A stretch of 64,000 nt of DNA from a virus. Its lineage: Duplodnaviria; Caudoviricetes. The notes beneath the pieces are model-generated. The model was not told the DNA's origin, made no database searches, and was given only the letters and a program-made list of their open reading frames with translations. This document shows positions 10,270-26,172 of this stretch, one piece after another. The position numbers were made by a program, and so were the translations under genes. Position 1 is the first letter of the stretch; each line of letters starts with the position of its first letter. Location: IMG/VR virus record IMGVR_UViG_3300032327_000792; one strand, 5' to 3'.

Positions 10270-11541
10270 ATGAGTGTCCCTTTAGATCGTTTATATCACT
10301 ACATTGAAAGCATCGCCCAAGAAGTCTACGGCGACGTATTAATTTATCGCTTTTATCCTCATGGGTCAAAAAAAATAGAAGATTTAACATGCCCCAAAAA
10401 AAAGCACACACCTTATCATGGTGCATACTGCCCTCAGTTGATATGCTACGATCAGGAACCGTTAAATTATGATCTATACAAACATACTCCTGTTCGATTA
10501 GATAAAAAATTTTATTCGTGTGATCCTAGCGACTTGCCAAAACGAAATCTTAGAGTTAAAGTTGGAAATATCTACGATAAATGCTTGTTGTTGCATAGTG
10601 AACTAAACAGTAACGAAGTTAATCGTTATCAACAAGATCAATTTGTGCCTGTGTACTACTGGAGTCACGCTATTATATCAAGAGACTGGTTTAGATATGC
10701 TGTACATGTTGACTTTAAAAAAGATATCAACAAAACTTTTTTAATTTATAATCGTGCATGGACCGGAACTAGAGAATATAGATTAAAATTTATTGAAATG
10801 CTGGGTGAGAACAATTTAGTCAATCATTGCCAAAGCAATTTTAATCCATCCGACGGCGAGAGCTATTATAAAACATATAAATTTGCCAACCCGGTTTGGA
10901 AACCCAACTCCGACTTAGAGCAATATTTTGATCCAACAACAGCGTCGAGTGCCAGCAGTGCAGATTTTGATATTGATGATTACAATAGCACAGAGATTGA
11001 AGTTGTACTTGAAACATTGTTTGATGATCAGCGTCAACAGTTAACTGAAAAGATACTGCGACCAATTGCTTGTAAACAGCCGTTTATTTTGGCATCTACG
11101 GCTGGCAGTTTGACATATTTACGTACATATGGATTTAAAACATTTGAAGAAATCTGGGACGAAAGCTATGATTCCATTGATGATCCAATCGAACGTATGC
11201 AAAGAATTATTAAAACAATGCGTGATATTGCATCATGGTCACCAGAATACAAAAAAACCCAGATGCAAAAACTTAGAGAAATTGTTGAACATAATCATCA
11301 ATATTTTTTTAGTGATAAATTTTTTCAGAGTGTAATCTTGGAACTTAAAAAAAATCTATCCACGGCATTTGACCACATAGAAAATACCACAGTTGGAAAA
11401 CACTACCTTGACGTTTCTATGAAGAATATACCCGGGATACGCGAACCCAGAAAAACTTCTAGTTACAATAGACAGTTTAAACACGACGTACTTAAAAAAT
11501 TAAAAGAGTACAGAAAAAGAAATCGTAAAGGGGTTAAATAA
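10270..11541 (+). CDS. Putative glycosyltransferase (TEK...PF family, GT10-like C-terminus)
   Basis: LTEKILRPIACKQPFIL...LRTYGFKTF..WDESYD motif; AT-rich. Confidence 0.5.
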   Translation: MSVPLDRLYHYIESIAQEVYGDVLIYRFYPHGSKKIEDLTCPKKKHTPYHGAYCPQLICYDQEPLNYDLYKHTPVRLDKKFYSCDPSDLPKRNLRVKVGNIYDKCLLLHSELNSNEVNRYQQDQFVPVYYWSHAIISRDWFRYAVHVDFKKDINKTFLIYNRAWTGTREYRLKFIEMLGENNLVNHCQSNFNPSDGESYYKTYKFANPVWKPNSDLEQYFDPTTASSASSADFDIDDYNSTEIEVVLETLFDDQRQQLTEKILRPIACKQPFILASTAGSLTYLRTYGFKTFEEIWDESYDSIDDPIERMQRIIKTMRDIASWSPEYKKTQMQKLREIVEHNHQYFFSDKFFQSVILELKKNLSTAFDHIENTTVGKHYLDVSMKNIPGIREPRKTSSYNRQFKHDVLKKLKEYRKRNRKGVK

Positions 11542-11544
11542 TTG

Positions 11545-13596
11545 ATGTTCAAAAAAGTTCTACTTAGCTCCTGGACTGCTCTATTAACCCTTGTGTTGAT
11601 AGTGGGCATACGTGTAGCAGATCCCTCATTTGTCGAAAGCGTAAGACTACGGTATTTTGACACGCTGATTACTGCCAAAGCTCCAACTGAGAATAACATC
11701 TATACTGTCAACATAGATGAAGCCGCGCTAGACAAATATGGCCAGTGGCCTTTACCGAGAGATCAATATGCTAAAATCATTCAAGATTTGTATCAGCGTG
11801 GTGCTGGTGTTGTGGTTCTTAATGTGCTTATGGCTGAGTCTGATCGCACCGGTGGAGACGTTGTACTAGCCAACGCACTAAAACAATACCCTGTGGTGCT
11901 TCCTAGTGTGCCCGGTGACAAAACAAAGAACAATCCACGACAACCCGGGTCAGCTGTTATTGGTGCCGAGTACACTGATCTAATTGTACAGTATCCGGGA
12001 TTAATTGCCAACGTTCGAGCTCTGGAAACCGGTGCAGTCGGAGTTGGTATTGTAAACACCTTGCCCGAAGTAGATGGTGTTAATCGTAGACTACCCATGG
12101 TAGTTGCTGTCAACGGACGAGTATATCCCAGCATGGCCATGGAGACTCTGCGTGTAGCCGCAGGTGATTCAACGTTTCAAGTCAAACTATCAGAAATTGG
12201 CGTAGAAAAGATGCGCATTCCGGCCGTTGGAGCTATCACCACAGACAACCTAGGACGTGTATGGGTTGATCTAAGTCAGCAATCAAAGTCGGCGAGTTTA
12301 ATGAACTTACCCAAAGACTTTGGTGGGGCTATTGTCATAGTCGGAGCAACGGCTGCTGGTATCGCCAACCCTGTTCCTACTGCCAAAGGTGCTGTATGGC
12401 CGCAGGAGTTTCAGGCCATGGCCATTGGCACAATGATCAATGGTGTGGTCATTGCCAGACCAGCATGGGCCAACGGTGCTGAACTTTTGACAATGTTGGC
12501 TGTTGGTGTTGTACTATTATTTTTAACAAGGTGGACTTATGTTGGTATTGCGTCGGTTATTGGTTTCATTGCTGTATTTGCGTATGGCAGTTACTTTATG
12601 TTTAGCAGTAGTCTTTGGCTATTTGACATTACCGGGCCAATCGCAGGAGTTGTCCTTGTTGCGCTCCATGCTTACGGAGTCAAGTTTGTTTCAGAGTTCT
12701 TACAAAAGCAACAGATAAAGAAACAGTTTGGCACATACCTATCGCCAGCTATGGTAGAAAGGTTACAGCGGAATCCAGAGCTACTACAACTAGGTGGTGA
12801 GTCAAGAGAACTTTCGATTATGTTCACTGACGTTCGTGGATTTACCACAATCTCAGAACACTATGGCAAAGATGTACAAGGCTTGACCCGAATCATGAAT
12901 CGCTACATGACAGCCATGACAGCAAAAATTATAGAGAACCAAGGTACCTTAGACAAGTATATTGGTGACGCACAGATGGCTTTTTGGAACGCACCCCTGG
13001 ATGATGCTGACCATGCCAAGAATGCTGTGCGTACAGGTTTACAAATGATGGGAAGTTTAGATGCATTCAATCAAGAAATTACAGCAGAAGGCATACCAGC
13101 TTTTGGTATGGGTCTTGGGATTAATACTGATACCGTTGTGGTCGGGAACATGGGCAGTGATCAGCGGTTTGACTATACTTGTCTCGGCGATGGCGTCAAC
13201 TTGGCAGCTCGTCTGGAAGGGCAAAGCAAGCCGTACGGTGTCAAAATCGTACTGGGCCCGAAGACGGCGCAACTGGTAAAAGACGAATATTTTGTGCTTG
13301 AGCTAGATTGTATAGCAGTCAAAGGCAAAAAAGAAGGTGTAACAATTTACACAGTGCTGGGTCGTAACAACGAGATCAATCTAGACAAAGGTGACGTGCA
13401 AATGCACGAAGCTATGTTGGTATTGTATCGTCAACAACGGTTTGACCAAGCCATTAAGTTCTGCCAAGACCTCAAGGGCAGATTTGCAGGTGAGATGGAC
13501 CAATACTACGACGCTTGGATAGAGCGTTGTGAGGAGATGAAACATGTTGAATTACCAACAGATTGGGACTCAGTTTACAGAGCAGTTTCAAAATAA
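11545..13596 (+). CDS. CHASE2-domain class III adenylate cyclase
   Basis: N-terminal TM, CHASE2 (IDEAAL..GQWP.PR; PEVDGVNRRLP), 3 TM, catalytic MFTDVRGFT, DKYIGDA, YTCLGDGVNLAARLE, VKGK. Confidence 0.93.
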   Translation: MFKKVLLSSWTALLTLVLIVGIRVADPSFVESVRLRYFDTLITAKAPTENNIYTVNIDEAALDKYGQWPLPRDQYAKIIQDLYQRGAGVVVLNVLMAESDRTGGDVVLANALKQYPVVLPSVPGDKTKNNPRQPGSAVIGAEYTDLIVQYPGLIANVRALETGAVGVGIVNTLPEVDGVNRRLPMVVAVNGRVYPSMAMETLRVAAGDSTFQVKLSEIGVEKMRIPAVGAITTDNLGRVWVDLSQQSKSASLMNLPKDFGGAIVIVGATAAGIANPVPTAKGAVWPQEFQAMAIGTMINGVVIARPAWANGAELLTMLAVGVVLLFLTRWTYVGIASVIGFIAVFAYGSYFMFSSSLWLFDITGPIAGVVLVALHAYGVKFVSEFLQKQQIKKQFGTYLSPAMVERLQRNPELLQLGGESRELSIMFTDVRGFTTISEHYGKDVQGLTRIMNRYMTAMTAKIIENQGTLDKYIGDAQMAFWNAPLDDADHAKNAVRTGLQMMGSLDAFNQEITAEGIPAFGMGLGINTDTVVVGNMGSDQRFDYTCLGDGVNLAARLEGQSKPYGVKIVLGPKTAQLVKDEYFVLELDCIAVKGKKEGVTIYTVLGRNNEINLDKGDVQMHEAMLVLYRQQRFDQAIKFCQDLKGRFAGEMDQYYDAWIERCEEMKHVELPTDWDSVYRAVSK

Positions 13597-13768: not shown

Positions 13769-13790
13769 ATGTTAAGTTATAAATAATTCT

Positions 13791-13858
13791 AATCGAGTGC
13801 AATGATCGAGCACAGTTGGAACTCGTAACCAACACTAAAGAGCCTAGGCTCTTTTTTT
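13791..13858 (+). ncRNA. Candidate small RNA with its own promoter and terminator
   Basis: TATAAATA at 13778-13785; hairpins GTGC/GCAC and GTTGG/CCAAC; terminator AAAGAGC-CTAG-GCTCTTTTTTT; no ORF. Confidence 0.55.
13837..13858 (+). terminator. Intrinsic terminator
   Basis: Palindrome AAAGAGCCTAGGCTCTTT followed by a T-tract. Confidence 0.8.
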
Positions 13859-13935: not shown

Positions 13936-14094
13936 ATGAAACAAGAAAAACTTGTTCAAAAGCTGTATCGGGCCTGCTTCGACCACGACGCCGAGAAGAT
14001 TGCAAAACTTCGCCAAGAAGAATTTGCCAAAATCTTGAAACGCAAGGCCGAAGGCAAGTCTTTTACTGCTGAGTGGACTGTTGTACAGATATAA
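13936..14094 (+). CDS. Small basic hypothetical protein (52 aa)
   Basis: [21 protein letters not shown]...; TAAATA and AAGGAGG RBS. Confidence 0.75.
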
Positions 14095-15070
14095 GACTGC
14101 GTTGAAATATGTGCCAACAGGCTTCCCAGGTCCATCGTTGAGAAGCTTGTTGAACTCTGTTGCGATCTAACAACAAGCAGTGTTCCACAGCCGTGATTAG
14201 ATTTTCATCCATCCATCCATTGATACCATTTTCCACAACATCTATGGGTCCTTGCACAGGAAATGCTGCCACTGGAGTGCCTTGTGCCATGGCTTCAATC
14301 ATTACCAAGCCAAAAGTATCAGCTCTGCTGGGAAACACAAACACATCGGCGTTGTAGTATTGATTCACTAGATCTTGTCCTTGCTTGTAACCCAGGAACA
14401 ATGCATTGGGTAACAATCTCTGTGCTTCTTCCCTATAGGGGCCATCACCAACTATGATTAGAAAATAACGATTCTGTATTTCGACCAGTTGATCTAGTCC
14501 TTTTTCGGGACTGACGCGACCCACACACAACACAATGGGCAAGTGTTTGTGGTCGACTCGTAGGATATTGGGTTCAATAGATCTATCTACTCCGCGAGCC
14601 CACACAGTGAGATTTTTAAATCCGTGTGAGTGTAAATCTTTGCGTATGGTTTCAGTTGTGACCAACACTCTGTGACTGTTTTTGTGAAACCAACGCAGAT
14701 AAGCATAGGTCCAGCGAGCAGGAACTCCATACATCACAGATAAGAACTTAGGAAAGTCAGTGTGATAGCTAGTGTTATAACTATAACCATTACGCTCACA
14801 CCACCAGCGAGCAAAAAGGCCCACAGGTCCTTCTGTAGCGATGTGTATAAAGTCCGGCTGTATCTCCTTAATTTTTTTTGAGATACCCCAGGGCCACGAG
14901 AGCTTAACTTCAGGATAGCCAGGGCAATCACAATGAGGGAACTGCCCGGGATCAAGATAAACAACGTCATAGCCGTTGCCAACAGCATGACTTTCCAAGT
15001 TTTTGAAAGTTGTGACCACGCCATTGATCTGCTCCTGTGTGTTGTCCGTGACAATTAATATTTTAGGCAT
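14063..15070 (-). CDS. agt: GT4 glycosyltransferase, Agt-like diacylglycerol glycosyl/glucuronosyltransferase
   Basis: [78 protein letters not shown]; start moved to MPKIL. Confidence 0.8.
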
Positions 15071-15848
15071 TGCGATATTGTTTGTTAGATTCAATAGCAG
15101 TAGACAACATAGGCATGTGTACCTGTTGACCTTGGGCTAGATAGTTCAATGCTGCGGTATCCTTGGGGAAGCATGCTCCGCCATAGCCATGTTCTCCGTC
15201 AGGCCCGGGTACAGCCCAGTGAGTATTGCCCAAGCGGCTATCTGTTTTGGCAATACTGGACAGTTTGTCCCAATCCAGTTCCAATGCATGAGCCAATACA
15301 TACAACTCATTGTTCACAATAACCTTCATGGCCAGCATACAATTGGCCATGTACTTGAAGTAACTGGCTTCTTCGATGCTACAGTATTCTATTTTTACTC
15401 GATCAAAGTTCACAGCACTGGACATCAATATGTCAGTGACTTCATCACGTAGTTTCTTTCGACATCCTACCACAATCTTGTGTGGGTTTACATAGTCAAA
15501 CTTGGCACGAGCCTGTGTCAAAAACTCTGGTACATGTGCTAGATTTAGATCTAGCTCTTTTTCCAACTGTCTATAAACTGTAGGACTTGCTGTGCTTTTG
15601 GCAACAACTATTCCGTTGTACCCAGATAGGCCTGTCAACACCTGTGTTAATGTTGAGGTATCACACTCGCCTGAGTCAGACTGAGGAGTTGGTACACAAA
15701 CAAATATAGCACGGCATTTGTCACGAAGTTTGTCTATTGAGACCGATTCTGATCCTAGCTTGGGATCATTTATCAAAATCTTGTCGTCAGGATAACTGGC
15801 AGCCACTGCCGAGCCAACATATCCATTGCCTATGATACCTATTTTCAT
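15063..15848 (-). CDS. ugd: UDP-glucose 6-dehydrogenase-like protein lacking the C-terminal domain
   Basis: GIIGNGYVG, FVCVPTP, KSTASP, PEFL, KYMANCMLA, GYGGACFPKD; only 261 aa. Confidence 0.8.
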   Translation of the reverse strand: MKIGIIGNGYVGSAVAASYPDDKILINDPKLGSESVSIDKLRDKCRAIFVCVPTPQSDSGECDTSTLTQVLTGLSGYNGIVVAKSTASPTVYRQLEKELDLNLAHVPEFLTQARAKFDYVNPHKIVVGCRKKLRDEVTDILMSSAVNFDRVKIEYCSIEEASYFKYMANCMLAMKVIVNNELYVLAHALELDWDKLSSIAKTDSRLGNTHWAVPGPDGEHGYGGACFPKDTAALNYLAQGQQVHMPMLSTAIESNKQYRNA

Positions 15849-16606
15849 TTTTCGCTCACAATCTCATTCCAGTATACAATTTCCCAACGACCATCCCAGT
15901 GTTCAACCAATGCTGTACAACTTTCTACCCAGTCGCCGTCGTTCATGTACACAATACCATCAATGTCTCGTATTTCAGCTGTGTGTATGTGTCCACAGAT
16001 GATGCCATCATAGCCTTTGGTCTTGCAATAGTCAGCCAACAATGTTTCAAAGTTTAAGACATACGAAACAGCCTGTTTGGTATTTTGCTTGATCCAGCGA
16101 CTCATGGACCAGTATCTAAGACCCAATCGAGAACGCACAAAGGACCATGCATCGTTCAAACGAATAATGATGTCGTACAACCAATCTCCAATGTGCATCA
16201 GCACTCGCCCTGAACTGATGTGCATCAATGTGTCAAACATATCTCCATGTACCACTAGATACCGACGACCATCCAATCCTGTGTAATCACATCGGTTGAC
16301 AACTTCAACATTGCCCACTGCAGGAATAAAGTTTAGCCATTTACGTAGTACTTCATCGTGATTACCCACAATGTATTTGATTGTAGCACCTCGTTTGGCT
16401 GCTGTCAATATTTTACGGACAACGTTTGAATGTTCTTGGGGCCAAAACCATTTCTTTTGTAGACGCCAACCGTCAATGATATCGCCTACCAGTAATATTG
16501 TTTCGGCTGTGTTGTGTTTTAAAAAGTTACAAAGCAAATCTGCCTTGCATCCTCGGCTGCCCAGATGTATGTCGCTGATACTGATAGTTCTATATTTTGG
16601 TTGCAT
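15845..16606 (-). CDS. plcP: PlcP-like phospholipase C (LpxH-like metallophosphoesterase)
   Basis: SDIHLG, C.A..L..FL, LVGDIIDGW.L...W.WP..H..VV.KIL, GNHDE, HGDMFD, GL.YWS.S, CGHIH, NDGDWVESCTALVE. Confidence 0.85.
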   Translation of the reverse strand: MQPKYRTISISDIHLGSRGCKADLLCNFLKHNTAETILLVGDIIDGWRLQKKWFWPQEHSNVVRKILTAAKRGATIKYIVGNHDEVLRKWLNFIPAVGNVEVVNRCDYTGLDGRRYLVVHGDMFDTLMHISSGRVLMHIGDWLYDIIIRLNDAWSFVRSRLGLRYWSMSRWIKQNTKQAVSYVLNFETLLADYCKTKGYDGIICGHIHTAEIRDIDGIVYMNDGDWVESCTALVEHWDGRWEIVYWNEIVSEK

Positions 16607-16684: not shown

Positions 16685-17095
16685 TTATTTGATAGGAATA
16701 CGCAATCGTGCCGCAATACATCCAGCAACCATGTCTCCGACTTGTGGGATAATCATTGTGCATACCCAGCCATAACACACTTCGGGCAATGCCACAGGTA
16801 TCACATTCTGTACAGCATAGCCAGTAACTGCGCCAGCGTTGATACCTATGTCCCAGCGATTATTTTTATACAAAGAATATCTAGCATAGGCATACGTGCT
16901 GTAACGATACTCACTGTTTTTATAAGCGCCTGCTGCTGCTGTCCAATTACCACCAATTGTTTGCTCGTAACCAGCGCCCCAGTTTTGTTCGTTGTATCCA
17001 GATTTATTGTGTTTGCTTACACCATTGAAATGTACGTAAGATTCTGCACTAGCAGTTGATGTGATGAATAGTAATAAGAAAAGTAGGCGTTTCAT
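16685..17095 (-). CDS. Small outer-membrane beta-barrel, PagP-like
   Basis: Signal peptide ASA; SKH..YNEQNWGAG..AYKNS..STY..GAVTGY pattern. Confidence 0.55.
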   Translation of the reverse strand: MKRLLFLLLFITSTASAESYVHFNGVSKHNKSGYNEQNWGAGYEQTIGGNWTAAAGAYKNSEYRYSTYAYARYSLYKNNRWDIGINAGAVTGYAVQNVIPVALPEVCYGWVCTMIIPQVGDMVAGCIAARLRIPIK

Positions 17096-17106
17096 ACACC
17101 TACTTA

Positions 17107-17439
17107 TTATCCTTCTCCGGATCCTGCTGTTTTCTTGTCTTCGTCGTTGACTTTTTTCATAGTTTGTTTGTTGATTTCAGCCTCAGCTTCCACACGCTCA
17201 TATTCAATGGTTTTACCACGTAGGTGTAACACTGTGTTGACTTTCTGATTTAGTCTGATCAAATCGTTGTCCAACATGCGAATACGATCAATAAGTGCAA
17301 TCAGTACAGTGTTGGCTTCTGATATAACCGGCTTGACTTCTTTGGTCGACCATTCCCATACATATTTTATTATATACCCAAGACCGACTGCCATAACAAT
17401 CGGGAATCCATATTTTTGTATTAGTGCTACTACGTCCAT
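17107..17439 (-). CDS. Single-TM coiled-coil protein
   Basis: KYGFPIVMAVGLGY TM then LIDRIRMLDNDLIRL; paralogous pattern to 17839-18120; AAGGAG RBS. Confidence 0.75.
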   Translation of the reverse strand: MDVVALIQKYGFPIVMAVGLGYIIKYVWEWSTKEVKPVISEANTVLIALIDRIRMLDNDLIRLNQKVNTVLHLRGKTIEYERVEAEAEINKQTMKKVNDEDKKTAGSGEG

Positions 17440-17440
17440 T

Positions 17441-17593
17441 TTATCTCCTTAATTCCAATATACTTTTTATTGTTTTATTACAAAAGTCTTTTATCTGCTC
17501 TTCGAGTTTGATTATCAACCACACACAATACACACTCGCTGCCAATGTCAGAATGGAAATAAAATAAATTGCTAGGAGTATGTAGTTATTCAA
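17441..17593 (-). CDS. Small membrane peptide (50 aa)
   Basis: TTG start overlapping the upstream TGA; hydrophobic NNYILLAIYFISILTLAASVYCVWLII. Confidence 0.45.
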   Translation of the reverse strand: MNNYILLAIYFISILTLAASVYCVWLIIKLEEQIKDFCNKTIKSILELRR

Positions 17594-17658
17594 AATGCAA
17601 CGTCCAATAAAACACCAATAGCAGGCAAACTGTCATACCACTGTTGCCATCTACTCAT
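17590..17658 (-). CDS. 22-aa mini ORF, possibly a gene remnant
   Basis: MSRWQQWYDSLPAIGVLLDVAF; coupled to both neighbours. Confidence 0.3.
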   Translation of the reverse strand: MSRWQQWYDSLPAIGVLLDVAF

Positions 17659-17839
17659 TGCCAATTCCATTACGCAAAAACTTTTCTAACGGGTCTACTT
17701 TAACTAACATAGTACGACCATTGACATTAATAACTTTAAAATAGTCGCCGCTGCGCCAACCCAACTTGTCTGTATTAAGTTCGGCATCTAATACAATTCT
17801 GTTAGGTTCTAAATCCCACTCGTAGTCGTAATATTTCAT
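17651..17839 (-). CDS. Small protein, possibly AbrB-like swapped hairpin
   Basis: LGWRSGDYFKV..NGRTMLVK pattern. Confidence 0.45.
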   Translation of the reverse strand: MKYYDYEWDLEPNRIVLDAELNTDKLGWRSGDYFKVINVNGRTMLVKVDPLEKFLRNGIGNE

Positions 17840-18120
17840 TAGTCACGTCTCGCATCATTCTTGCCGTCGGCACGACTGATACGGTCAACATCAGGACGTA
17901 GACCCAGTGCGTTTGATACCACCGTATCAATACGAATAACATCGTGATTCATTGTTTTGACACGATTGTCCAAAGCAGTAATAATGCCAGCCATGCCTTT
18001 GATAGACGACAATACACCCGCAAGTAAAAGTTTGATAGTCAAGTACACAAAGTATCCGCCTGCCAGCGCCACTGCAACAGGAAATCCTAGATCCCCTATT
18101 AGTTTGAATATTTCGCCCAT
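17839..18120 (-). CDS. Single-TM coiled-coil protein
   Basis: DLGFPVAVALAGGYF TM then LDNRVKTMNHDVIRID; TAAATA and AGGAG RBS. Confidence 0.75.
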   Translation of the reverse strand: MGEIFKLIGDLGFPVAVALAGGYFVYLTIKLLLAGVLSSIKGMAGIITALDNRVKTMNHDVIRIDTVVSNALGLRPDVDRISRADGKNDARRD

Positions 18121-18178
18121 TTTAGCTCCTGTTAATTATGTAGGTATTTATTCGTTTGTAAATATCCAAGGTCAATGC

Positions 18179-19276
18179 TTACTTTTGTACAATAGTAATC
18201 ACTGTTGATCCGCCACGATTGATTTGCTGAGTTACTGGTGCGCTATCTTGCGAAATATTGAGAGTAACATCGGCTTCCTTGTTGATTGTGACCTGTGCAG
18301 TGTGCATAGTTTGTCTGCGTAAAATCAGTTTTAATTCGTCTTCATTGAAACCGTAGGTCAATCCAGATGCCGCATTGTATCCTGGTAACATGGTTTTTTC
18401 AGTCAATAGATTTTCTTGACTTTGTGCCAACTGTCGATTAGAAAGATCCAGCATATTCATCAACATATCTCCGTCGAGGTAGTTAAGGTCTAGATCGCGG
18501 AATGCTGCTAACGGATCTTCATCCAATGCGTTGTATTTCAAGAAGTCTTGATCCAAAAAGTTTATCAATGGATTGTCTCTGGACAGTGCATTAACAGCTT
18601 CTTCTATTTGCGGAGGTGGTTGAACAATCAGCATGTTGTTGATGTTGGCTTGATCCAACACAATGGTCACAGGAATGCTAGGCATGGCTGACAGACTGGC
18701 AACCATGGTGGCTTGATATGCTTGGTCCAGGGTCACTTCGCCTGCGTCATTTGACACAGTAATGGCACCCGTGACACATCCGCGGTTATCGCAACTGGGC
18801 AACAGAATCACAAGACTGCGGCCTAGTTCGTCCACGGTCATTGAAAAGTCTGTGCCACGTACAGCCACAGTGGCAGTGGGAGTTTTCACATCAACATTCT
18901 GTGGGTTGGTCTTGGCAATCTGTCCTGAGGCATACCGAGCTGTGCCTAACACAACTTTCATGGCAATCTTGCCTGATCCTTTTTTGGGATCATACACAAA
19001 GTCATCAATTATCAGTTTTGATTGTTCTGTGATATTGACTGTGGTGTTGTCTTCGAATGTGAGTTTGGCTTTGGCTCGGGCAGTGACAATGGTGTCATTC
19101 ATTTCCACAGGAGAATTCACTGAGGATGGCAGTGATTTTTTAGCACGTACAATTTCTGTTGGACCAGTTTGCTCTGTAATTTTACCTACAGAAGCCAAAC
19201 TAGTCTGACTGAACAATGCTGACAGTATTGCTGTTGCCAGTAGTATTGACTGTGACAGTTTTTGCGGTAAGACCAC
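18179..19276 (-). CDS. FecR-domain secreted protein
   Basis: Signal peptide; V.MNDTIVT..AKAKLTFEDNTTVNITEQSKL.ID..., VKTPTATVAVRGTDF. Confidence 0.85.
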   Translation of the reverse strand: MVLPQKLSQSILLATAILSALFSQTSLASVGKITEQTGPTEIVRAKKSLPSSVNSPVEMNDTIVTARAKAKLTFEDNTTVNITEQSKLIIDDFVYDPKKGSGKIAMKVVLGTARYASGQIAKTNPQNVDVKTPTATVAVRGTDFSMTVDELGRSLVILLPSCDNRGCVTGAITVSNDAGEVTLDQAYQATMVASLSAMPSIPVTIVLDQANINNMLIVQPPPQIEEAVNALSRDNPLINFLDQDFLKYNALDEDPLAAFRDLDLNYLDGDMLMNMLDLSNRQLAQSQENLLTEKTMLPGYNAASGLTYGFNEDELKLILRRQTMHTAQVTINKEADVTLNISQDSAPVTQQINRGGSTVITIVQK

Positions 19277-19832
19277 TCTGTGTTACTCCAATTGTGTTTA
19301 GATCACCTGTGGCAGTGATAATGGTTGTGCTTGCGCCGCTGTTGGTGCTGGTATGGGTCACTGTGTTGGTGTCTCCGCTAATGTTGACAAAACTTGAGTG
19401 GTTAGCACCTGTGCCCAAGTTCTGTGTGATCACGTTGTTGTCACCGGCAACTTGCTGGTTAATTACACTACCACTACAGCCAGCACTTTGCGTGGTTCCA
19501 CAATTGATCACACTTTGGTTGCCTGAACCAGTAATACTCACTGTTGAACTAGTTGATGCACCATTCAACACCATGGCCAACTTATTGTTGCTGCCAATTT
19601 GTTCAATGATTACTGAGTTAGAACCGCCACCAACAAAAGCATCAAGTCCTGCGCCCGGCTCTCCGACTCGGTTGCCTGTGCCATCTTGTGTGATGGTTAT
19701 GGAGGAATTGTCACCAACTTGTTCAATGTAAATTTCGTTGGCAGAAACACCGCTAGACAACATCACTGTTGCCAGCAGTATGGCGGATATATGTTTGACC
19801 AATTCACCAACATTTGTTAATCTTGTTTTCAT
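19200..19832 (-). CDS. Curlin-like repeat protein (CsgA/CsgB-like)
   Basis: Signal peptide then repeats IYIEQVGDN, ITQDGTGN, IEQIGSNN, QQVAGDNN, ATGDLN, TTGNSN. Confidence 0.75.
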   Translation of the reverse strand: MKTRLTNVGELVKHISAILLATVMLSSGVSANEIYIEQVGDNSSITITQDGTGNRVGEPGAGLDAFVGGGSNSVIIEQIGSNNKLAMVLNGASTSSTVSITGSGNQSVINCGTTQSAGCSGSVINQQVAGDNNVITQNLGTGANHSSFVNISGDTNTVTHTSTNSGASTTIITATGDLNTIGVTQSGLTAKTVTVNTTGNSNTVSIVQSD

Positions 19833-19926
19833 TTTATTCAACAAATCGAGTTGGCAAACATATTAGTCTGTACCCCGATCCTCTCCCTGGTCTTTGAGAC
19901 CTTTTTATCATTATATTTACAGGATA

Positions 19927-20991
19927 TCATGGTTTCATTAACCTGTCGCTTTTGACCCAGCCTCGACGACCAACTGAGTCTTGCACTGCCATCCACGAGT
20001 CCGGTCCTGGAGTCACTGTTAACTCTGTGTTTTCTTTCAACATCCATGTACGTTGACTACGTTCGTTGGGTTCTTTGTAGATGTAAGACGCTTCACGAAG
20101 TTTCATAGTTGACACTGACTCTTTGACCACTGCGGGTGGTTTGATTTCTGCCACTGGTTCTACAACCACCGACGTTGCTGTTGTGGTTGCAGGTACAGCA
20201 GATACAACATTGTTGGCTAGTTGTTTGTACTTCCACAGGCCTTTCTTTTCGCCTTCCACAATCATTTCGTAAACGGCCTGTTCAATGGCCACACGTACAG
20301 CATAGGTAGTAGGCTCATTGAGTGCTGCGCCTGATTCAAGTTCCAGACTTCTAGTTCCTTGATCCACAAATCTCAACACACTGACATTGTGCTGAGTACT
20401 GTAGATAGTTTTTGACACTGCCACATTCAACAACACTTCGCCGGAAGATATTGAAATTAGTCTAAGACTGATTACAATTTCATCCACACGATATTGTTGA
20501 CTTCCACCGATACCCAAAAATCTAGCACCATTACCACCTGATCGAATGTTGCTGTCATATCCAATAATGCCGCCTTCCAAGATCAAGCCGGCTACTGTGA
20601 GTGGCTTCAAAGGTTTGGCTTCTTTGCCCTCATAGACTTCACGCTGATTTCTTATGAGTTGACGCTCTTTGATCAAGTTGTCCAGACCCACACGTTCAAC
20701 AACTCGAAACCATTTTTTTGAGTCTTGTAAACTCTTGATCAAAAACACTTCGGATCCTTGTGTGACTGCACTGGAGAACAGAGCTAGATTTGTACTGGAT
20801 TTTTTTTGTCCTGTTAGATCTTTGAATCCATACACTGCCACTGTCATGGGAGCACCATCCAATTCTGGCAGTTTGGTCAACAAGTTCTCTCGAGGGTTCA
20901 ACGCAATAGGATCTTCCTTAGCTAGATCCATGTGAATCTGAGCACACCCCGACAGTGTGATTGCAACAAAAAAGATTAGCAAGTAGCGCAT
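19927..20991 (-). CDS. csgG: Curli secretion channel CsgG with a C-terminal SH3-like extension
   Basis: Lipobox LSGC; VAVYGFKDLTGQ, FSSAVTQG, WFRVVERVGLDNLIKERQ, GGIIGYDSN; tail ...GWVKSD. Confidence 0.9.
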   Translation of the reverse strand: MRYLLIFFVAITLSGCAQIHMDLAKEDPIALNPRENLLTKLPELDGAPMTVAVYGFKDLTGQKKSSTNLALFSSAVTQGSEVFLIKSLQDSKKWFRVVERVGLDNLIKERQLIRNQREVYEGKEAKPLKPLTVAGLILEGGIIGYDSNIRSGGNGARFLGIGGSQQYRVDEIVISLRLISISSGEVLLNVAVSKTIYSTQHNVSVLRFVDQGTRSLELESGAALNEPTTYAVRVAIEQAVYEMIVEGEKKGLWKYKQLANNVVSAVPATTTATSVVVEPVAEIKPPAVVKESVSTMKLREASYIYKEPNERSQRTWMLKENTELTVTPGPDSWMAVQDSVGRRGWVKSDRLMKP

Positions 20992-21434
20992 TAGAATGCA
21001 AAACTCCCTATGGGTACAGTAACCGTGGTAACTCCACCAGCGGCTTCTCTAATAGTCAGCGTAACGTCTGTGCCAGTTTTGATCCAAGAGATGTTGGTGC
21101 CTTGGAACGCCATTTCTCCTGAATTGGCGCCGTCACTGAACATAGCATCTGCCAGTTGCTTTGAGAGTTGAGCATAAATTCTAGACTCTACGTTGACTAA
21201 AAATTTAGCCAGATTGGTATTTTTAGCATCTCGTGCCACCTGATCCGCAGCTGATTTTTCTGCATCTTTGATGGTCTTGCGTCGGTTGGCTTCTAATTGC
21301 TCAATGGTCAACACATGGGTTGAATACCCATTGCCCGGTATAAATGCTGGAGACTGGAAAGAGTGGACCAGCTCTGTGGCCCATGCCGTTGCTGAAAAAA
21401 CAGCGACTATTGTTATTGTTATTATTTTTTTCAT
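20991..21434 (-). CDS. csgF: CsgF-like curli assembly protein
   Basis: Signal peptide; ELVHSFQSPAF.GNG...; FLVNVESRIYAQLSKQL; coupled to csgG. Confidence 0.7.
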   Translation of the reverse strand: MKKIITITIVAVFSATAWATELVHSFQSPAFIPGNGYSTHVLTIEQLEANRRKTIKDAEKSAADQVARDAKNTNLAKFLVNVESRIYAQLSKQLADAMFSDGANSGEMAFQGTNISWIKTGTDVTLTIREAAGGVTTVTVPIGSFAF

Positions 21435-21470: not shown

Positions 21471-21495
21471 AACAATAAACGGCTAGTTTATTGTT
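21471..21495. terminator. Perfect 10-bp hairpin
   Basis: AACAATAAAC-GGCTA-GTTTATTGTT at the end of the 21494 gene. Confidence 0.45.
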
Positions 21496-21736
21496 AGCTG
21501 GGCATTGGCAAACTGGCTAGGACCTTGATCAGTTGATCTGCAAACAGCTTTTGTTCGTGGAATTGTGCTTCGTCTACTATGACTTGTGTTCTAACTAGAT
21601 CTTCAAGTAAGGCCGCTTGTTCATCTGGGGCTATTTGCCCTTGAGCGAATGCTTGATTGATTTCTTGTGCTCTTGTTGCGAGATCAACAATGCCGGCATA
21701 GCCCGGCAACATACCGTACAATGTTTCGTAGCTCAT
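21494..21736 (-). CDS. Hypothetical protein
   Basis: 80 aa; ATGA coupling to the upstream lipoprotein. Confidence 0.65.
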   Translation of the reverse strand: MSYETLYGMLPGYAGIVDLATRAQEINQAFAQGQIAPDEQAALLEDLVRTQVIVDEAQFHEQKLFADQLIKVLASLPMPS

Positions 21737-22134
21737 CTTGGTCTCCTAGCGTTCGTACGCTGAATAATTTCTATTTGTGTGGCAATATTTTTTAATCGCA
21801 ATTCACAGAACACCTTGCTAGGCGCACGGTCAGAATCTCGATATCGCTTGGCAAAGTCAGCAGTGGTATTTTTCAATTCAACAGCCATCTTTTCTGCTGA
21901 TTCATTGTTGGGTATGTATTGAGTATAGAACAGCAACCATGTTGCATCACTGTCTATGTTTTCAGCACTGTATCTTGCCAACTTTGGGTGGTCACAATGT
22001 TGTTCAGTTTGTGCCACATATACAGTGTGTCGAACATCGACCATACGACTGTGTTCGATTGGGTCAAACTTGACAGCACAAGCTGTCAATGCAATGCTAC
22101 TGACTACGAGCAGTTTTTTCAATAATGCCATCAA
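21733..22134 (-). CDS. Lipoprotein
   Basis: Lipobox LTAC; TAAGTA and AGGAGA upstream. Confidence 0.7.
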   Translation of the reverse strand: MMALLKKLLVVSSIALTACAVKFDPIEHSRMVDVRHTVYVAQTEQHCDHPKLARYSAENIDSDATWLLFYTQYIPNNESAEKMAVELKNTTADFAKRYRDSDRAPSKVFCELRLKNIATQIEIIQRTNARRPR

Positions 22135-22465
22135 ACGATTCTCCTGGATCTTGTTGTGTATACTTAGTTATTCTTTCATTTAGACTGGTATAATAGCTAT
22201 CCATGTCGGCGCCCCAATAGCCAAGTAAGTGCTCAAGAGCTTGAGTACAAAAATTCCAATCACGTTTGCGATAATTGATCAACAGATTTTCGTGTAGATT
22301 TTTCATACTTTCGGCTTTGGGCATGTTTAGAATAGGGATAGACTCTACCAAACAATAAGCAGTGACTACCTGATTTGTTGGTAAAATTCGAACTGTATCC
22401 AATTCCAATATGGTGTATTTTTCTTCTACGTTGTGCAAATTCTCTTTGCCAAATATTATGTTCAT
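22097..22465 (-). CDS. Stand-alone paralog of the adenylate cyclase C-terminal region
   Basis: IIFG...KYTILELD..., LHE.LL..YR..DW...G.W..DMD.YY..ER aligns by eye to the last ~120 aa of 11545-13596; AAGGA RBS. Confidence 0.7.
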   Translation of the reverse strand: MNIIFGKENLHNVEEKYTILELDTVRILPTNQVVTAYCLVESIPILNMPKAESMKNLHENLLINYRKRDWNFCTQALEHLLGYWGADMDSYYTSLNERITKYTQQDPGESFDGIIEKTARSQ

Positions 22466-22489
22466 CTTAATTCCTTTTAAATATGTATC

Positions 22490-23278
22490 ATGCAATTTAA
22501 TTTTGATTTAATTTCTGATCTACACATAGAAACTTGGGACAGCTTTGATTGGTCAGGTCAACCTACCAGTCCTTACTGCGTTGTTGCCGGTGATGTTTGT
22601 AGAGATCGCGACGTATTGCGAGATACCTTGCGCCATTTGGGCACTTGTTATCAAGGTGTGTTTTACATCGACGGCAATGATGAACATCGCAACGACCTTG
22701 ATAATCTTGGAGAAAGTTACCAATATCTTGATCAAACTCTGGACAACATCAAAAACGTAGTATACCTTCAGGACAATGTGGTCATCATCAACGGTGTTGC
22801 TATACTGGCCACCAACGGCTGGTGGAGCTACGACATGGATCCTGAAATTGACTATGAACAAAGTCAGTTTTGGTATCAGGACCGCATGCAAACGTTGCCC
22901 GGAACCACGGACTCTATCACCGGTATTGCGTTCAATGACGCCACATACATGCTCAACAGTGTGAAAAAATTACAAACCCACCAAGATGTTCGTAGCATTG
23001 TAATTGTTACTCATACTGTTCCGGCACCTTGGATTTTGAGTCATGATATTGACCTAGTTGACACCTGGCGGTTTAATTGCATGGGTAATCCACACCTACA
23101 GTTATTGCTCAACGAAGACACCGAAAACAAAATTCATACCTGGTGTTTTGGTCACTATCACAAATCAGTAGACCGTGTACACAACGGTATACGCTATGTC
23201 AACAACTGCCGAGGACGAGGTGATACCAAATGGTCTCAGCCGGCATATTACCCTCGACGTATCACTGTTGAGATTTAA
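22490..23278 (+). CDS. Calcineurin-like metallophosphoesterase
   Basis: SDLH, AGD, DGNDEH, VTHTVP, FGHYH. Confidence 0.85.
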   Translation: MQFNFDLISDLHIETWDSFDWSGQPTSPYCVVAGDVCRDRDVLRDTLRHLGTCYQGVFYIDGNDEHRNDLDNLGESYQYLDQTLDNIKNVVYLQDNVVIINGVAILATNGWWSYDMDPEIDYEQSQFWYQDRMQTLPGTTDSITGIAFNDATYMLNSVKKLQTHQDVRSIVIVTHTVPAPWILSHDIDLVDTWRFNCMGNPHLQLLLNEDTENKIHTWCFGHYHKSVDRVHNGIRYVNNCRGRGDTKWSQPAYYPRRITVEI

Positions 23279-23583
23279 ACAGTGTCCGGTTCTAGTTTGA
23301 TTTGTAACGGATAGTCTTGACTGCGTGCAGCCACAGTAACTTCAATGCCTTTTTGTTCTGCTACTTCATAAGGCAACACAGCAACCACAGCTGATCCAGC
23401 ATGATGAATATCTTCTGTAATCTTTAGAGCTGTTTGTGCGGTGTAATTAAAAAAATCAATCAAGGTTTCAATAACAAATTCCATTGACGTTTGATTGTCA
23501 TTGATATAGATGACCTTGAACATTGGAGGTTCTTTAAGTGCGGTATTGTTTTTTGTTTTTGTTACTGCATCTGGTTGTGACAT
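23275..23583 (-). CDS. clpS: Clp protease adaptor ClpS
   Basis: PPMFKVIYINDNQTSMEFV..L..FF...A..I...IH..GSAVV...YEVAEQK. Confidence 0.9.
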   Translation of the reverse strand: MSQPDAVTKTKNNTALKEPPMFKVIYINDNQTSMEFVIETLIDFFNYTAQTALKITEDIHHAGSAVVAVLPYEVAEQKGIEVTVAARSQDYPLQIKLEPDTV

Positions 23584-23642: not shown

Positions 23643-24080
23643 TCAGTTTTCGTATGAGATTGCAATAGTCTTTGGCTTGGCTGATTCCGGCACAATGCGT
23701 TCCAACTTCACAGTTAGAATACCGTCACGAGCAATAGCTGTTCTAACTTCAACATAATCTCCCAGGCTAAATGTTCGAATAAACTTACGAGCACTGATAC
23801 CGTGATGTCTGACTACATGTCCTTCGGGCAACACATCAGTTTTTGCTCCAGTGATAATAAGTTCTCCATCTTTGACTGTGATTTCAAGATCTCCTTGACT
23901 GAAACCGGCCACTGCTACCTGTACTTCATAGGTATTCTCGCCAGTTTCCACAATGTTGTATGGTGGGTAATTTGTTGATGCAGCATGATCGATCTGATTC
24001 ACAATACGATCAAACAGTCTATCTACGCCAATGGCGTTGCGATAGAATGGGGTTAGATCAAAAGCAGTAATTTTAGTCAT
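23643..24080 (-). CDS. Small heat shock protein (Hsp20/IbpA-like)
   Basis: IGVDRLF, YPPYNIV, AVAGFS, HGISARKFIRTF.L, GILTVKLER..PE. Confidence 0.93.
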   Translation of the reverse strand: MTKITAFDLTPFYRNAIGVDRLFDRIVNQIDHAASTNYPPYNIVETGENTYEVQVAVAGFSQGDLEITVKDGELIITGAKTDVLPEGHVVRHHGISARKFIRTFSLGDYVEVRTAIARDGILTVKLERIVPESAKPKTIAISYEN

Positions 24081-24175: not shown

Positions 24176-25807
<1,632 letters not shown>

Positions 25808-26104
25808 TTATTCTCCTTTGTTTACAACTGCCATCACATCATCTTCACGCATGATAAGATATTCTTGATCGTCAATCTTGACTTTTTGTCCTGCTGTTTT
25901 GCTAAACAACACCCGGTCGCCTGTTTGGATAACCATGGGCACAATCTTGCCGTCCACGTCAATTTTGCCTGTGCCTGCGGCCAATACATCGCCTTGGCTG
26001 GGTTTTTCTGCGGCTGCATCAGGAATAAAGATTCCAGACTTGGTCACAGTTTCTGATTCTAGTACTTGGACCACTAATCGGTCACGAATTGGTTTTAACT
26101 TCAT
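25808..26104 (-). CDS. groES: Co-chaperonin GroES
   Basis: [32 protein letters not shown]; start moved to MKLKP (AAGGAG RBS). Confidence 0.97.
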
Positions 26105-26142
26105 TTTTTCTCCTTGGATAATTAGAATCTGCGTCAACAGAT

Positions 26143-26172
26143 AGTATAGCACACATCATGGATGTGTGTCAA
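26143..26172 (-). promoter_or_regulatory. sigma70 promoter for groES-groEL with a palindrome in the spacer
   Basis: TTGACA-18 nt-TATACT; inverted repeat CACACATC-ATG-GATGTGTG at 26150-26168. Confidence 0.7.

Follow-up and report, generated by a model that had tools for sequence, protein, structure and literature searches.

Curli, FecR and CHASE2 Adenylate Cyclase Genes in a Probable Jumbo Phage: a Rearranged Cassette and Its Possible Role in Trans-Envelope Signalling

Introduction

Why should a phage carry genes of the curli or type VIII secretion system (T8SS) close to genes for a FecR-domain protein and a receptor-type adenylate cyclase, and do these parts work together? The question is raised by a 64,000-nucleotide (nt) stretch of the viral record IMGVR_UViG_3300032327_000792 (Duplodnaviria; Caudoviricetes), the whole of which is called the window below. 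A reading of its letters, here the original prediction, had described a minus-strand block of csgF, csgG, curlin, fecR and two small membrane protein genes at 17107-21434 with an intact CHASE2 class III cyclase about 3.5 kb away, and had proposed that surface contact is relayed from outer-membrane CsgG and curlin through periplasmic FecR to the inner-membrane cyclase.

The gene set itself is known. Wittmers et al. 2022 (PMC9599517) described in podo- and myo-pelagiphages a cassette of the order 'HK'-CsgF-CsgG-CsgA/B-FecR-(CsgA/B)-adenylate cyclase with one or two 'HK' genes, reported its global distribution and metatranscript evidence for it, found it at all 65 ocean stations surveyed and argued for selection on the whole set. 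The csgF/csgG cluster had also been described, without FecR or the cyclase, by Zaragoza-Solas et al. 2020 (PMC7029224) and Buchholz et al. 2022 (PMC9004378). With FecR and the cyclase already part of the cassette as published in 2022 (PMC9599517), the linkage is not new; that paper does not mention CHASE2 and treats FecR as an iron regulator, and it is only the explicit FecR-CHASE2 reading that goes beyond it here.

We consider it near certain that the window holds a rearranged member of this viral T8SS (curli)-FecR-adenylate cyclase cassette. Comparison of gene sets across related phages makes functional coupling of the cassette's two halves likely. As to what the coupling might be, on a narrow balance of probability we favour a curli-type conduit and fibre whose state would be coupled via the FecR-fold protein, and perhaps a pair of small membrane proteins, to the CHASE2 adenylate cyclase.

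The Cassette in the Window

Gene calls rest on Pfam and PHROG profile matches of the open reading frames (ORFs) of the window; lengths of products are given in amino acids (aa). The genes of the cassette are as follows.

20991-21434, minus strand: csgF, curli channel accessory protein with a signal peptide (PF10614, E 1.4e-15; phrog_35372, E 8e-49)
19927-20991, minus strand: csgG, outer-membrane lipoprotein channel with the lipobox LSGC (PF03783, E 1.6e-51)
19200-19844, minus strand: curlin-repeat (CsgA/B-like) secreted fibre subunit with a signal peptide and 4 repeats (PF07012, E 7e-7)
18179-19276, minus strand: secreted FecR-fold protein (PF04773, E 4e-11)
17839-18120, minus strand: small membrane protein A, 93 aa, with an amphipathic helix after its hydrophobic N-terminal segment (phrog_18771, E 2e-30)
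17107-17439, minus strand: small membrane protein B, 110 aa, paralogous to A (phrog_18771, E 3e-28)
11542-13596, plus strand: CHASE2 receptor adenylate cyclase, class IIIb-like, whose C-terminal beta/helical extension is conserved (CHASE2, E 1.2e-37; Guanylate_cyc, E 2.1e-18)

The profile matches thus bear out both the predicted block, with two extra small ORFs between the paralogs A and B, and the intact cyclase at its distance of about 3.5 kb. The csgF stop and the csgG start have base 20991 in common, and the FecR ORF overlaps the end of the curlin gene. As in the published cassette, csgF and csgG are adjacent, curlin follows csgG and is itself followed by FecR, and the small pair and a cyclase lie in the same region, the latter on the other strand. 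Among deposited phage records, only HTVC008M (KC465899) and Methylophilales phage Melnitz (MZ577097) have homologs of both the FecR protein and the CHASE2 cyclase, and in both of them csgF-csgG-curlin-FecR-(second curlin)-cyclase form one contiguous same-strand run with the small paralogs ahead. The identity of the window's proteins to theirs is 38-39% for FecR, 39-42% for the cyclase, 48-51% for CsgG and 41-54% for the small proteins. The Q/G/N ladder of the curlin repeats is invariant over 23 homologs. A tblastn search of the window for a second curlin copy, with the window's own curlin and the second copies of Melnitz and HTVC008M as queries, returned 19200-19844 only, and no CsgE, CsgC or CsgD was found by Pfam among the block ORFs (CsgE and CsgD even at E up to 10).

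The cyclase likely starts at the ATG at 11545. PF05226 (CHASE2) covers its residues 16-325, with hydrophobic segments at about 7-24 and 313-382, and the class IIIb adenylate cyclases of cyanobacteria and Pseudomonas are nearest to its catalytic domain, the best solved relative being CyaB1 (6fht, E 5.9e-36). Across 94 homologs the metal Asp residues D430 and D476 are invariant, as is K472, and R557 is nearly so; the motif DYTCLGDGVNLAARLE is present, and T546 and N553 can be read off it. Class III cyclases use two metal Asp, a Lys with a Thr or Asp for the substrate, and an Asn with an Arg for the transition state, and as judged from these residues the catalytic motif set is complete. Ahead of the cyclase, a 423-aa protein with no Pfam family is encoded at 10270-11541 (plus strand); its gene ends 3 nt before the cyclase ATG, so the two are probably co-translated. 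Homologs of the 423-aa protein occur near the module in many relatives, but not adjoining the cyclase.

Linkage and Gene Order across Related Phages

Scans of IMG/VR retrieved at least 515 contigs with the FecR protein and at least 579 with the cyclase, and the loci studied here are the best 80 of each scan, which gave 139 distinct loci. A viral locus is called well-flanked when at least 8 kb of sequence lie on both sides of the anchor gene. The cyclase, csgG, csgF and curlin are all present in 39/39 well-flanked loci anchored on FecR, and FecR, csgG, csgF and the small pair are all present in 27/27 anchored on the cyclase. This co-occurrence persists over at least 19 gene orders, and the independent distribution of cyclase and csg/fecR genes that had been named as the outcome adverse to the relay is not what these loci display.

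The commonest order is csgF-csgG-curlin-FecR-cyclase followed by an inverted small pair (38 loci), and the second is that of Melnitz (30 loci); the order of the window, in which FecR, A and B are followed by an inverted cyclase, occurs in 6 loci. In the closest relative (L004), the cyclase comes directly after small protein B, so the 3.5-kb gap in the window is an insertion. It holds a PagP-like gene and a lipid operon of the plcP-ugd-agt type.

16685-17095, minus strand: PagP-like outer-membrane protein, directly after B (phrog_3600, E 2.4e-21)
15845-16606, minus strand: metallophosphoesterase (Pfam domains agree with the plcP-ugd-agt reading)
15063-15848, minus strand: short gene of the UDP-glucose/GDP-mannose dehydrogenase family (Pfam)
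14063-15094, minus strand: GT4 glycosyltransferase (Pfam)

PagP-like homologs adjoin the cyclase in two other loci (L008 and L032), and about 20 related loci have pairs homologous to the lipid-operon genes between FecR and the cyclase. The converging cyclase and glycosyltransferase genes are separated by a perfect palindromic hairpin (13837-13854) that has T-runs on both strands and is likely a bidirectional terminator.

A Proposed Pathway from Conduit to Cyclase

In the reading that we favour, CsgG and CsgF would form an outer-membrane conduit in the infected cell and export a curlin-like fibre, and the FecR-fold protein, whose gene always directly follows that of curlin, would act at the periplasmic face of that conduit. 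The CHASE2 cyclase would read the condition of conduit, fibre or envelope and set the level of cyclic AMP (cAMP) in the infected cell, the read-out probably being a host cAMP receptor. A further gene, a free-standing copy of the C-terminal domain of the cyclase at the head of the csg operon, would tie regulation of the cyclase to csg expression. It is the first of three ORFs ahead of csgF.

22097-22495, minus strand: free-standing paralog of the cyclase C-terminal domain, a 132-aa ORF, cytoplasmic and lacking a signal peptide (BLASTP against cyclase residues 566-684, E 6e-12)
21733-22134, minus strand: predicted lipoprotein, 133 aa, lipobox LTAC, between the paralog and csgF, of uncertain membership in the module (homologs only in L084, L085 and L167)
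21494-21736, minus strand: 80-aa ORF, of uncertain membership in the module (ORF; no family match)

The true start of the paralog is likely the Met at 22465, which gives a product of 122 aa. Related loci hold 22 distinct homologs, 13 of which lie on the same strand as csgF and at most 110 nt upstream of it. Residues H68 and Y102 are invariant and common to the C-termini of phage and bacterial CHASE2 cyclases. The structure model, a small sheet with three helices, has a mean predicted local distance difference test (pLDDT) score of 87, and its matches in AFDB are C-terminal ends of class III cyclases; the PDB search with the same model gave generic helical or TPR-like matches only (Z at most 6.1). 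By its position and homology, the paralog at the head of the csg operon is a second, independent genomic tie of the cyclase to that operon. The 133-aa lipoprotein has no Pfam family, and a 10-bp inverted repeat stands 3' of the 80-aa ORF, directly ahead of csgF.

The FecR-Fold Protein

The protein on which the proposed coupling turns consists of a signal peptide, an N-terminal beta domain of the PupR/FecR type (about 30-215), a conserved Leu/Asp-rich helical linker (215-300) and a C-terminal beta domain (303-364), which in the structure model (pLDDT 88.8) is small and six-stranded. Residues 58-214 of the model match 6ovk_R (PupR CCSSD) with Z 15.3 and a root-mean-square deviation (rmsd) of 2.6 over 134 aligned residues, and the N-domain matches 4m0n, the periplasmic domain of a Bacteroidetes anti-sigma factor, with Z 14.3. 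The C-terminal beta domain returned Ig-like structure matches only (Z 3-4). PupR uses this fold to bind an outer-membrane transducer at its periplasmic signalling domain, and the FecR fold thus fits a worker at the inner face of an outer-membrane machine.

The cytoplasmic anti-sigma domain and the transmembrane anchor are both absent from the phage protein, in which about 28 signal-peptide-like residues precede the beta domain, so that strictly speaking it is no FecR-type regulator. Both the Pfam family name and the suggestion made in PMC9599517 would have FecR be an iron (ferric citrate-type) regulator and the cassette import iron or a cofactor through the CsgG pore. We regard this as highly improbable: nothing but a signal peptide stands ahead of the FecR domain, the csg-FecR block showed no FecA- or FecI-type genes, and the nearest bacterial relatives of the protein adjoin Slam-like barrels and CHASE2 cyclases, not iron transport genes.

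Bacterial Neighbourhoods and Other Conduits

Those bacterial relatives were collected as 69 truly bacterial loci with the nearest FecR homologs, after the top matches, phage-like contigs binned in metagenome-assembled genomes (MAGs), had been set aside. A CHASE2 adenylate cyclase of the same architecture lies within about 4 kb of FecR in 29 of the 69, which agrees with the earlier statement that FecR-domain genes neighbour CHASE2 cyclases in bacteria. Beside FecR, 49 of the 69 have a gene for a TPR protein with a Slam/DUF560-like barrel, and 28 have the barrel and the cyclase both; the Pfam SlipAM scores of these barrels are borderline (20.5-23.9 bits, cut-off 22). The 69 loci hold no csg genes, and the TPR + SlipAM/DUF560 barrel was found in none of 161 viral loci, nor in the window.

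A third arrangement is seen in a phage-like contig binned in a Rickettsiales MAG (L173, 5210-15114), where a 1317-aa protein headed by FecR, TolC-like and split HlyD-like genes, a CHASE2 cyclase and the small pair occur together and no csg genes were found. Judged by its gene content, this locus is a type I-like variant of the module. The recurrence of FecR and a CHASE2 cyclase with three different outer-membrane conduits supports a pair that needs a conduit. It would also suit a broader view, in which FecR and CHASE2 form a portable trans-envelope signalling core with an exchangeable conduit: bacteria would use a Slam/DUF560-like barrel, most phages CsgG/CsgF with curlin, and at least one phage-like contig a TolC/HlyD-type channel. 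The FecR head would then be periplasmic with its tail on the pore or fibre, and fibre contact, fibre load or a block of secretion would be turned into cAMP. We offer this version tentatively and think it rather unlikely to hold in full.

Separately, full phage-type modules occur in MAGs labelled Flavobacteriaceae, Polynucleobacter, Pelagibacter, Rhodobacteraceae, Luteolibacter, Pirellulales and an actinobacterium (L162-L170); these are most likely phage contigs mis-binned into MAGs.

Co-Inheritance and the Case against Coupling

Several observations weigh against the pathway that we favour, the first of them from a comparison of pairwise similarity matrices over 98 loci (rho with Mantel p). 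The FecR protein varies with CsgF and CsgG (rho 0.53-0.67 overall), its N-domain with CsgG (rho 0.57, Mantel p 0.002) and its C-terminal half with CsgF (rho 0.67, Mantel p 0.002), and the FecR N-domain and CHASE2 give rho 0.11 (Mantel p 0.034). By these values, the evolutionary partner of FecR is the pore apparatus, with no positive sign of a specific FecR-CHASE2 fit. The CHASE2 and catalytic domains of the same cyclases are uncorrelated (rho 0.04, Mantel p 0.13). This suggests frequent recombination inside phage cyclase genes (L003-L161) and makes the cyclase a recombining mosaic that has evolved largely apart from the csg-FecR block. The inserted plcP-ugd-agt and PagP-like envelope genes are unrelated to the cassette; the region is a variable island, in which proximity is weaker evidence than an operon would be. 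The cNMP_binding family (PF00027) was found in none of 5 related phage records, and a cAMP signal would thus need a host reader. Finally, curli regions without a cyclase, mainly in podoviruses, are reported in PMC9599517, and our sample, the best 80 loci per scan, may under-represent them.

Linkage and differences in rate can make part of the rho pattern, and conserved interfaces need not co-vary. Nevertheless, the proposed relay from CsgG and curlin through FecR to the cyclase comes out of the comparison divided: the co-occurrence, the bacterial FecR-CHASE2 neighbourhoods and the PupR fold speak for it, and the low FecR-CHASE2 correlation and the want of a phage cNMP-binding protein in the 5 related records speak against it. 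A direct FecR-CHASE2 contact would be its weakest step.

The same observations can be read as two separate functions housed in one variable island, where csg and FecR would make a surface amyloid (for aggregation, as 'sibling capture', or for phage exclusion) and the cyclase would serve host takeover by raising cAMP. The cyclase's own history (rho 0.04-0.24 with every csg or FecR part), its place in the window on the opposite strand, 3.5 kb off and behind a likely bidirectional terminator, the unrelated lipid-remodelling genes interspersed, and the reported cyclase-free curli regions (PMC9599517) all accord with such a division. What makes us judge it unlikely is that the co-occurrence holds in 39/39 and 27/27 loci through 19 rearrangements, that bacterial FecR-CHASE2 neighbourhoods exist without csg genes, and that a paralog of the cyclase's C-terminal domain heads the csg operon.

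A Tethered Cargo?

In another reading, the FecR-fold protein would itself be a cargo of the conduit. Its head would be a periplasmic retention or anchor domain, and its linker and C-terminal beta domain would be threaded into or through the conduit and join the fibre. A mechanical link would then run from the surface fibre to the periplasmic head, which CHASE2 could read. FecR residues 27-121 resemble the N-terminal domain of MpIBP (5ix9; Z 7.0, rmsd 2.1, 73 of 76 residues aligned), a domain that served as template for the LapA retention module (bioRxiv 10.1101/198937), but a Z of 7 is within the range of chance fold resemblance. The last 54 residues of FecR align to the final curlin repeat with an invariant terminal Q (hhalign E 0.0017); the hhalign probability is low, at 15%, Pfam Curlin_rpt does not match the FecR C-terminus, and we treat the curlin-like end as a weak lead only. 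The FecR head on the 1317-aa protein beside the TolC-like and HlyD-like genes of L173 would suit a cargo, and so would the C-terminal half having its best co-variation with CsgF (rho 0.67), although shared fast evolution and linkage may account for such rho values. Substrates of CsgG are thought to enter through an N-terminal signal, which is an ill fit to an N-terminal head that is retained. A tethered cargo seems to us quite improbable.

CsgG and the Lysis-Pore Proposal

The C-terminal part of CsgG consists of a Pro/Thr/Val-rich linker followed by an SH3-like tail (about 19930-20220). The original prediction had called this tail SH3-like and atypical. For the first description, residues 304-351 match SH3_4 at E 2.9e-5 and 24.2 bits, barely over the cut-off of 24.1, and SH3_3 reaches 18.6 against a cut-off of 27. 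The second is not borne out: among 123 distinct related CsgGs, 53 are at least 300 aa long and 25 have a tail homologous to that of the window, so the tail is a recurrent variant within the phage family and nothing unusual.

In PMC9004378, it was proposed for Melnitz that CsgG and CsgF are a repurposed gated pore that times lysis in the manner of a pinholin or secretin, the other genes being regulators. The phage cassettes lack CsgE, and none is found among the block ORFs, as would suit such a pore. In the window and in 39/39 well-flanked loci, however, there is a curlin gene with a signal peptide, which contradicts the premise that fibre genes are missing, and no lysis genes were identified beside the block in the window. 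We give the lysis pore very little credence.

The Small Membrane Proteins and the End of the Block

A and B align to each other and to the corresponding pairs in Melnitz and HTVC008M. The pair is kept in 38 of the 39 well-flanked FecR-anchored loci, and the similarity matrices of its two members agree (rho 0.78), as expected of a co-inherited pair. Both are probably bitopic membrane proteins; the charges flanking the hydrophobic segment are balanced, and the positive-inside rule does not choose an orientation. Three further features belong to this end of the block.

17651-17839, minus strand: 62-aa ORF between A and B (tblastn matches in 16 of the 39 well-flanked FecR-anchored loci; no family)
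17441-17593, minus strand: 50-aa hydrophobic ORF between A and B, uncertain (ORF only; no homolog in related loci)
17081-17105, minus strand: terminator-like hairpin ending the csg-FecR-small membrane protein block (10-bp stem and T-rich tail; consensus match only)

From their position and size, we infer that A and B are the 'HK' genes of Wittmers et al. The published label "histidine kinase" does not fit proteins of 93 and 110 aa in which Pfam finds neither HisKA, HATPase_c nor any other kinase family (E up to 10). Neither A nor B has an invariant His, and homologs free of His make up 10 of 99 of the A type and 22 of 104 of the B type.

The block had also been called late. The T4-type late promoter motif TATAAATA occurs 3 times in the 64 kb (1.7 expected) and never at the csg-FecR block, its sole occurrence in the region being at 13778, and ATAAATA occurs 11 times (10 expected) and is not placed at the block, so neither motif lends support to that label. 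A scan for sigma-70-like promoters stayed at chance level (30 found, 26 expected).

Phage Context and Significance

The window holds genes for a ribonucleotide reductase, a ligase, a DnaB-like helicase, baseplate-like proteins, GroEL, ClpS and Hsp20, which is the context of a large phage. Its closest IMG/VR relative is a 149-kb contig of 44% completeness, and the complete relatives that carry this module measure 160 kb and 337-364 kb; the genome is probably that of a jumbo phage of about 340 kb. No near-identical DNA was found in the phage records searched. Adjoining the module is a proteostasis cluster of ClpS (23275-23583), Hsp20 (23643-24080), GroEL (24176-25804) and a possible GroES (25808-26152), and in many relatives ClpS and a 262-aa gene (22490-23278) are syntenic with the csg block.

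At least 515-579 IMG/VR contigs place the cassette among the commonest auxiliary gene sets that aquatic T4-like and jumbo phages carry, its genes occurring jointly in hundreds of phage contigs. If the cyclase does read a phage-built fibre apparatus, the cassette would be a sensory pathway installed by the phage in its host, and would open a concrete route to studying what CHASE2 domains sense. The window adds little on the existence of the cassette. Its contributions are a rearranged architecture, a stand-alone gene for the C-terminal domain of the cyclase heading the csg operon, evidence against the 'histidine kinase' label, and the co-variation of FecR with CsgF and CsgG and not with CHASE2.

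Comparison with Known Systems

The window is closest to the viral T8SS cassette of HTVC008M and Melnitz, with which it has all core genes and the order csgF-csgG-curlin-FecR in common. It differs from them in that its small pair follows FecR, where theirs precedes csgF, and in that its cyclase is inverted, with the PagP-like gene and the plcP-ugd-agt operon between it and the block. It has one curlin gene, not two (a second copy is frequent but not universal in the published cassette), its CsgG carries the SH3-like tail, and the free-standing paralog of the cyclase C-terminal domain stands upstream. The published carriers are phages of about 140 kb or podoviruses, whereas the genome of the window is probably that of the roughly 340-kb jumbo phage proposed above.

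With the csgBAC/csgDEFG operons of E. coli, the phage block shares the CsgG channel family, CsgF and a secreted subunit with curlin repeats. Unlike in them, no CsgE, CsgC or CsgD was found in it, and it has in addition a FecR-fold protein, a CHASE2 cyclase and small membrane proteins, none of which belongs to bacterial curli operons (PMC9599517). The FecR/PupR anti-sigma regulators are alike in the fold of the periplasmic domain (6ovk and 4m0n, as above), but the phage protein is secreted and stand-alone and comes without their cytoplasmic anti-sigma domain, anchor or FecA- and FecI-type partners.

The bacterial barrel-FecR-CHASE2 neighbourhoods, which come from MAGs of Alphaproteobacteria, Omnitrophota, delta-type proteobacteria and Spirochaetales, have a homologous FecR N-domain (about 30-205, 28-37% identity) and the same cyclase architecture including the C-terminal extension, the catalytic part being 40-49% identical. 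They have a TPR + SlipAM-like barrel where the phage has CsgG/CsgF, their FecR proteins are longer (300-800 aa) and often present in 2-3 copies, and curlin and the small membrane pair are absent.

A working precedent for an outer-membrane protein that feeds CHASE2 adenylate cyclases is, by the account in PMC13001267, the NsrA pathway of S. meliloti, in which the outer-membrane beta-barrel NsrA acts upstream of the CHASE2 cyclases CyaD1, CyaD2 and CyaK, with Clr reading the cAMP. In the same circuit, the FecR-domain protein SMc02177 is a Clr target and is reported not to be required for signal perception (PMC5498481). The S. meliloti pathway differs from the phage set in being a chromosomal bacterial system with no curli genes, and it is by role that we liken the two.

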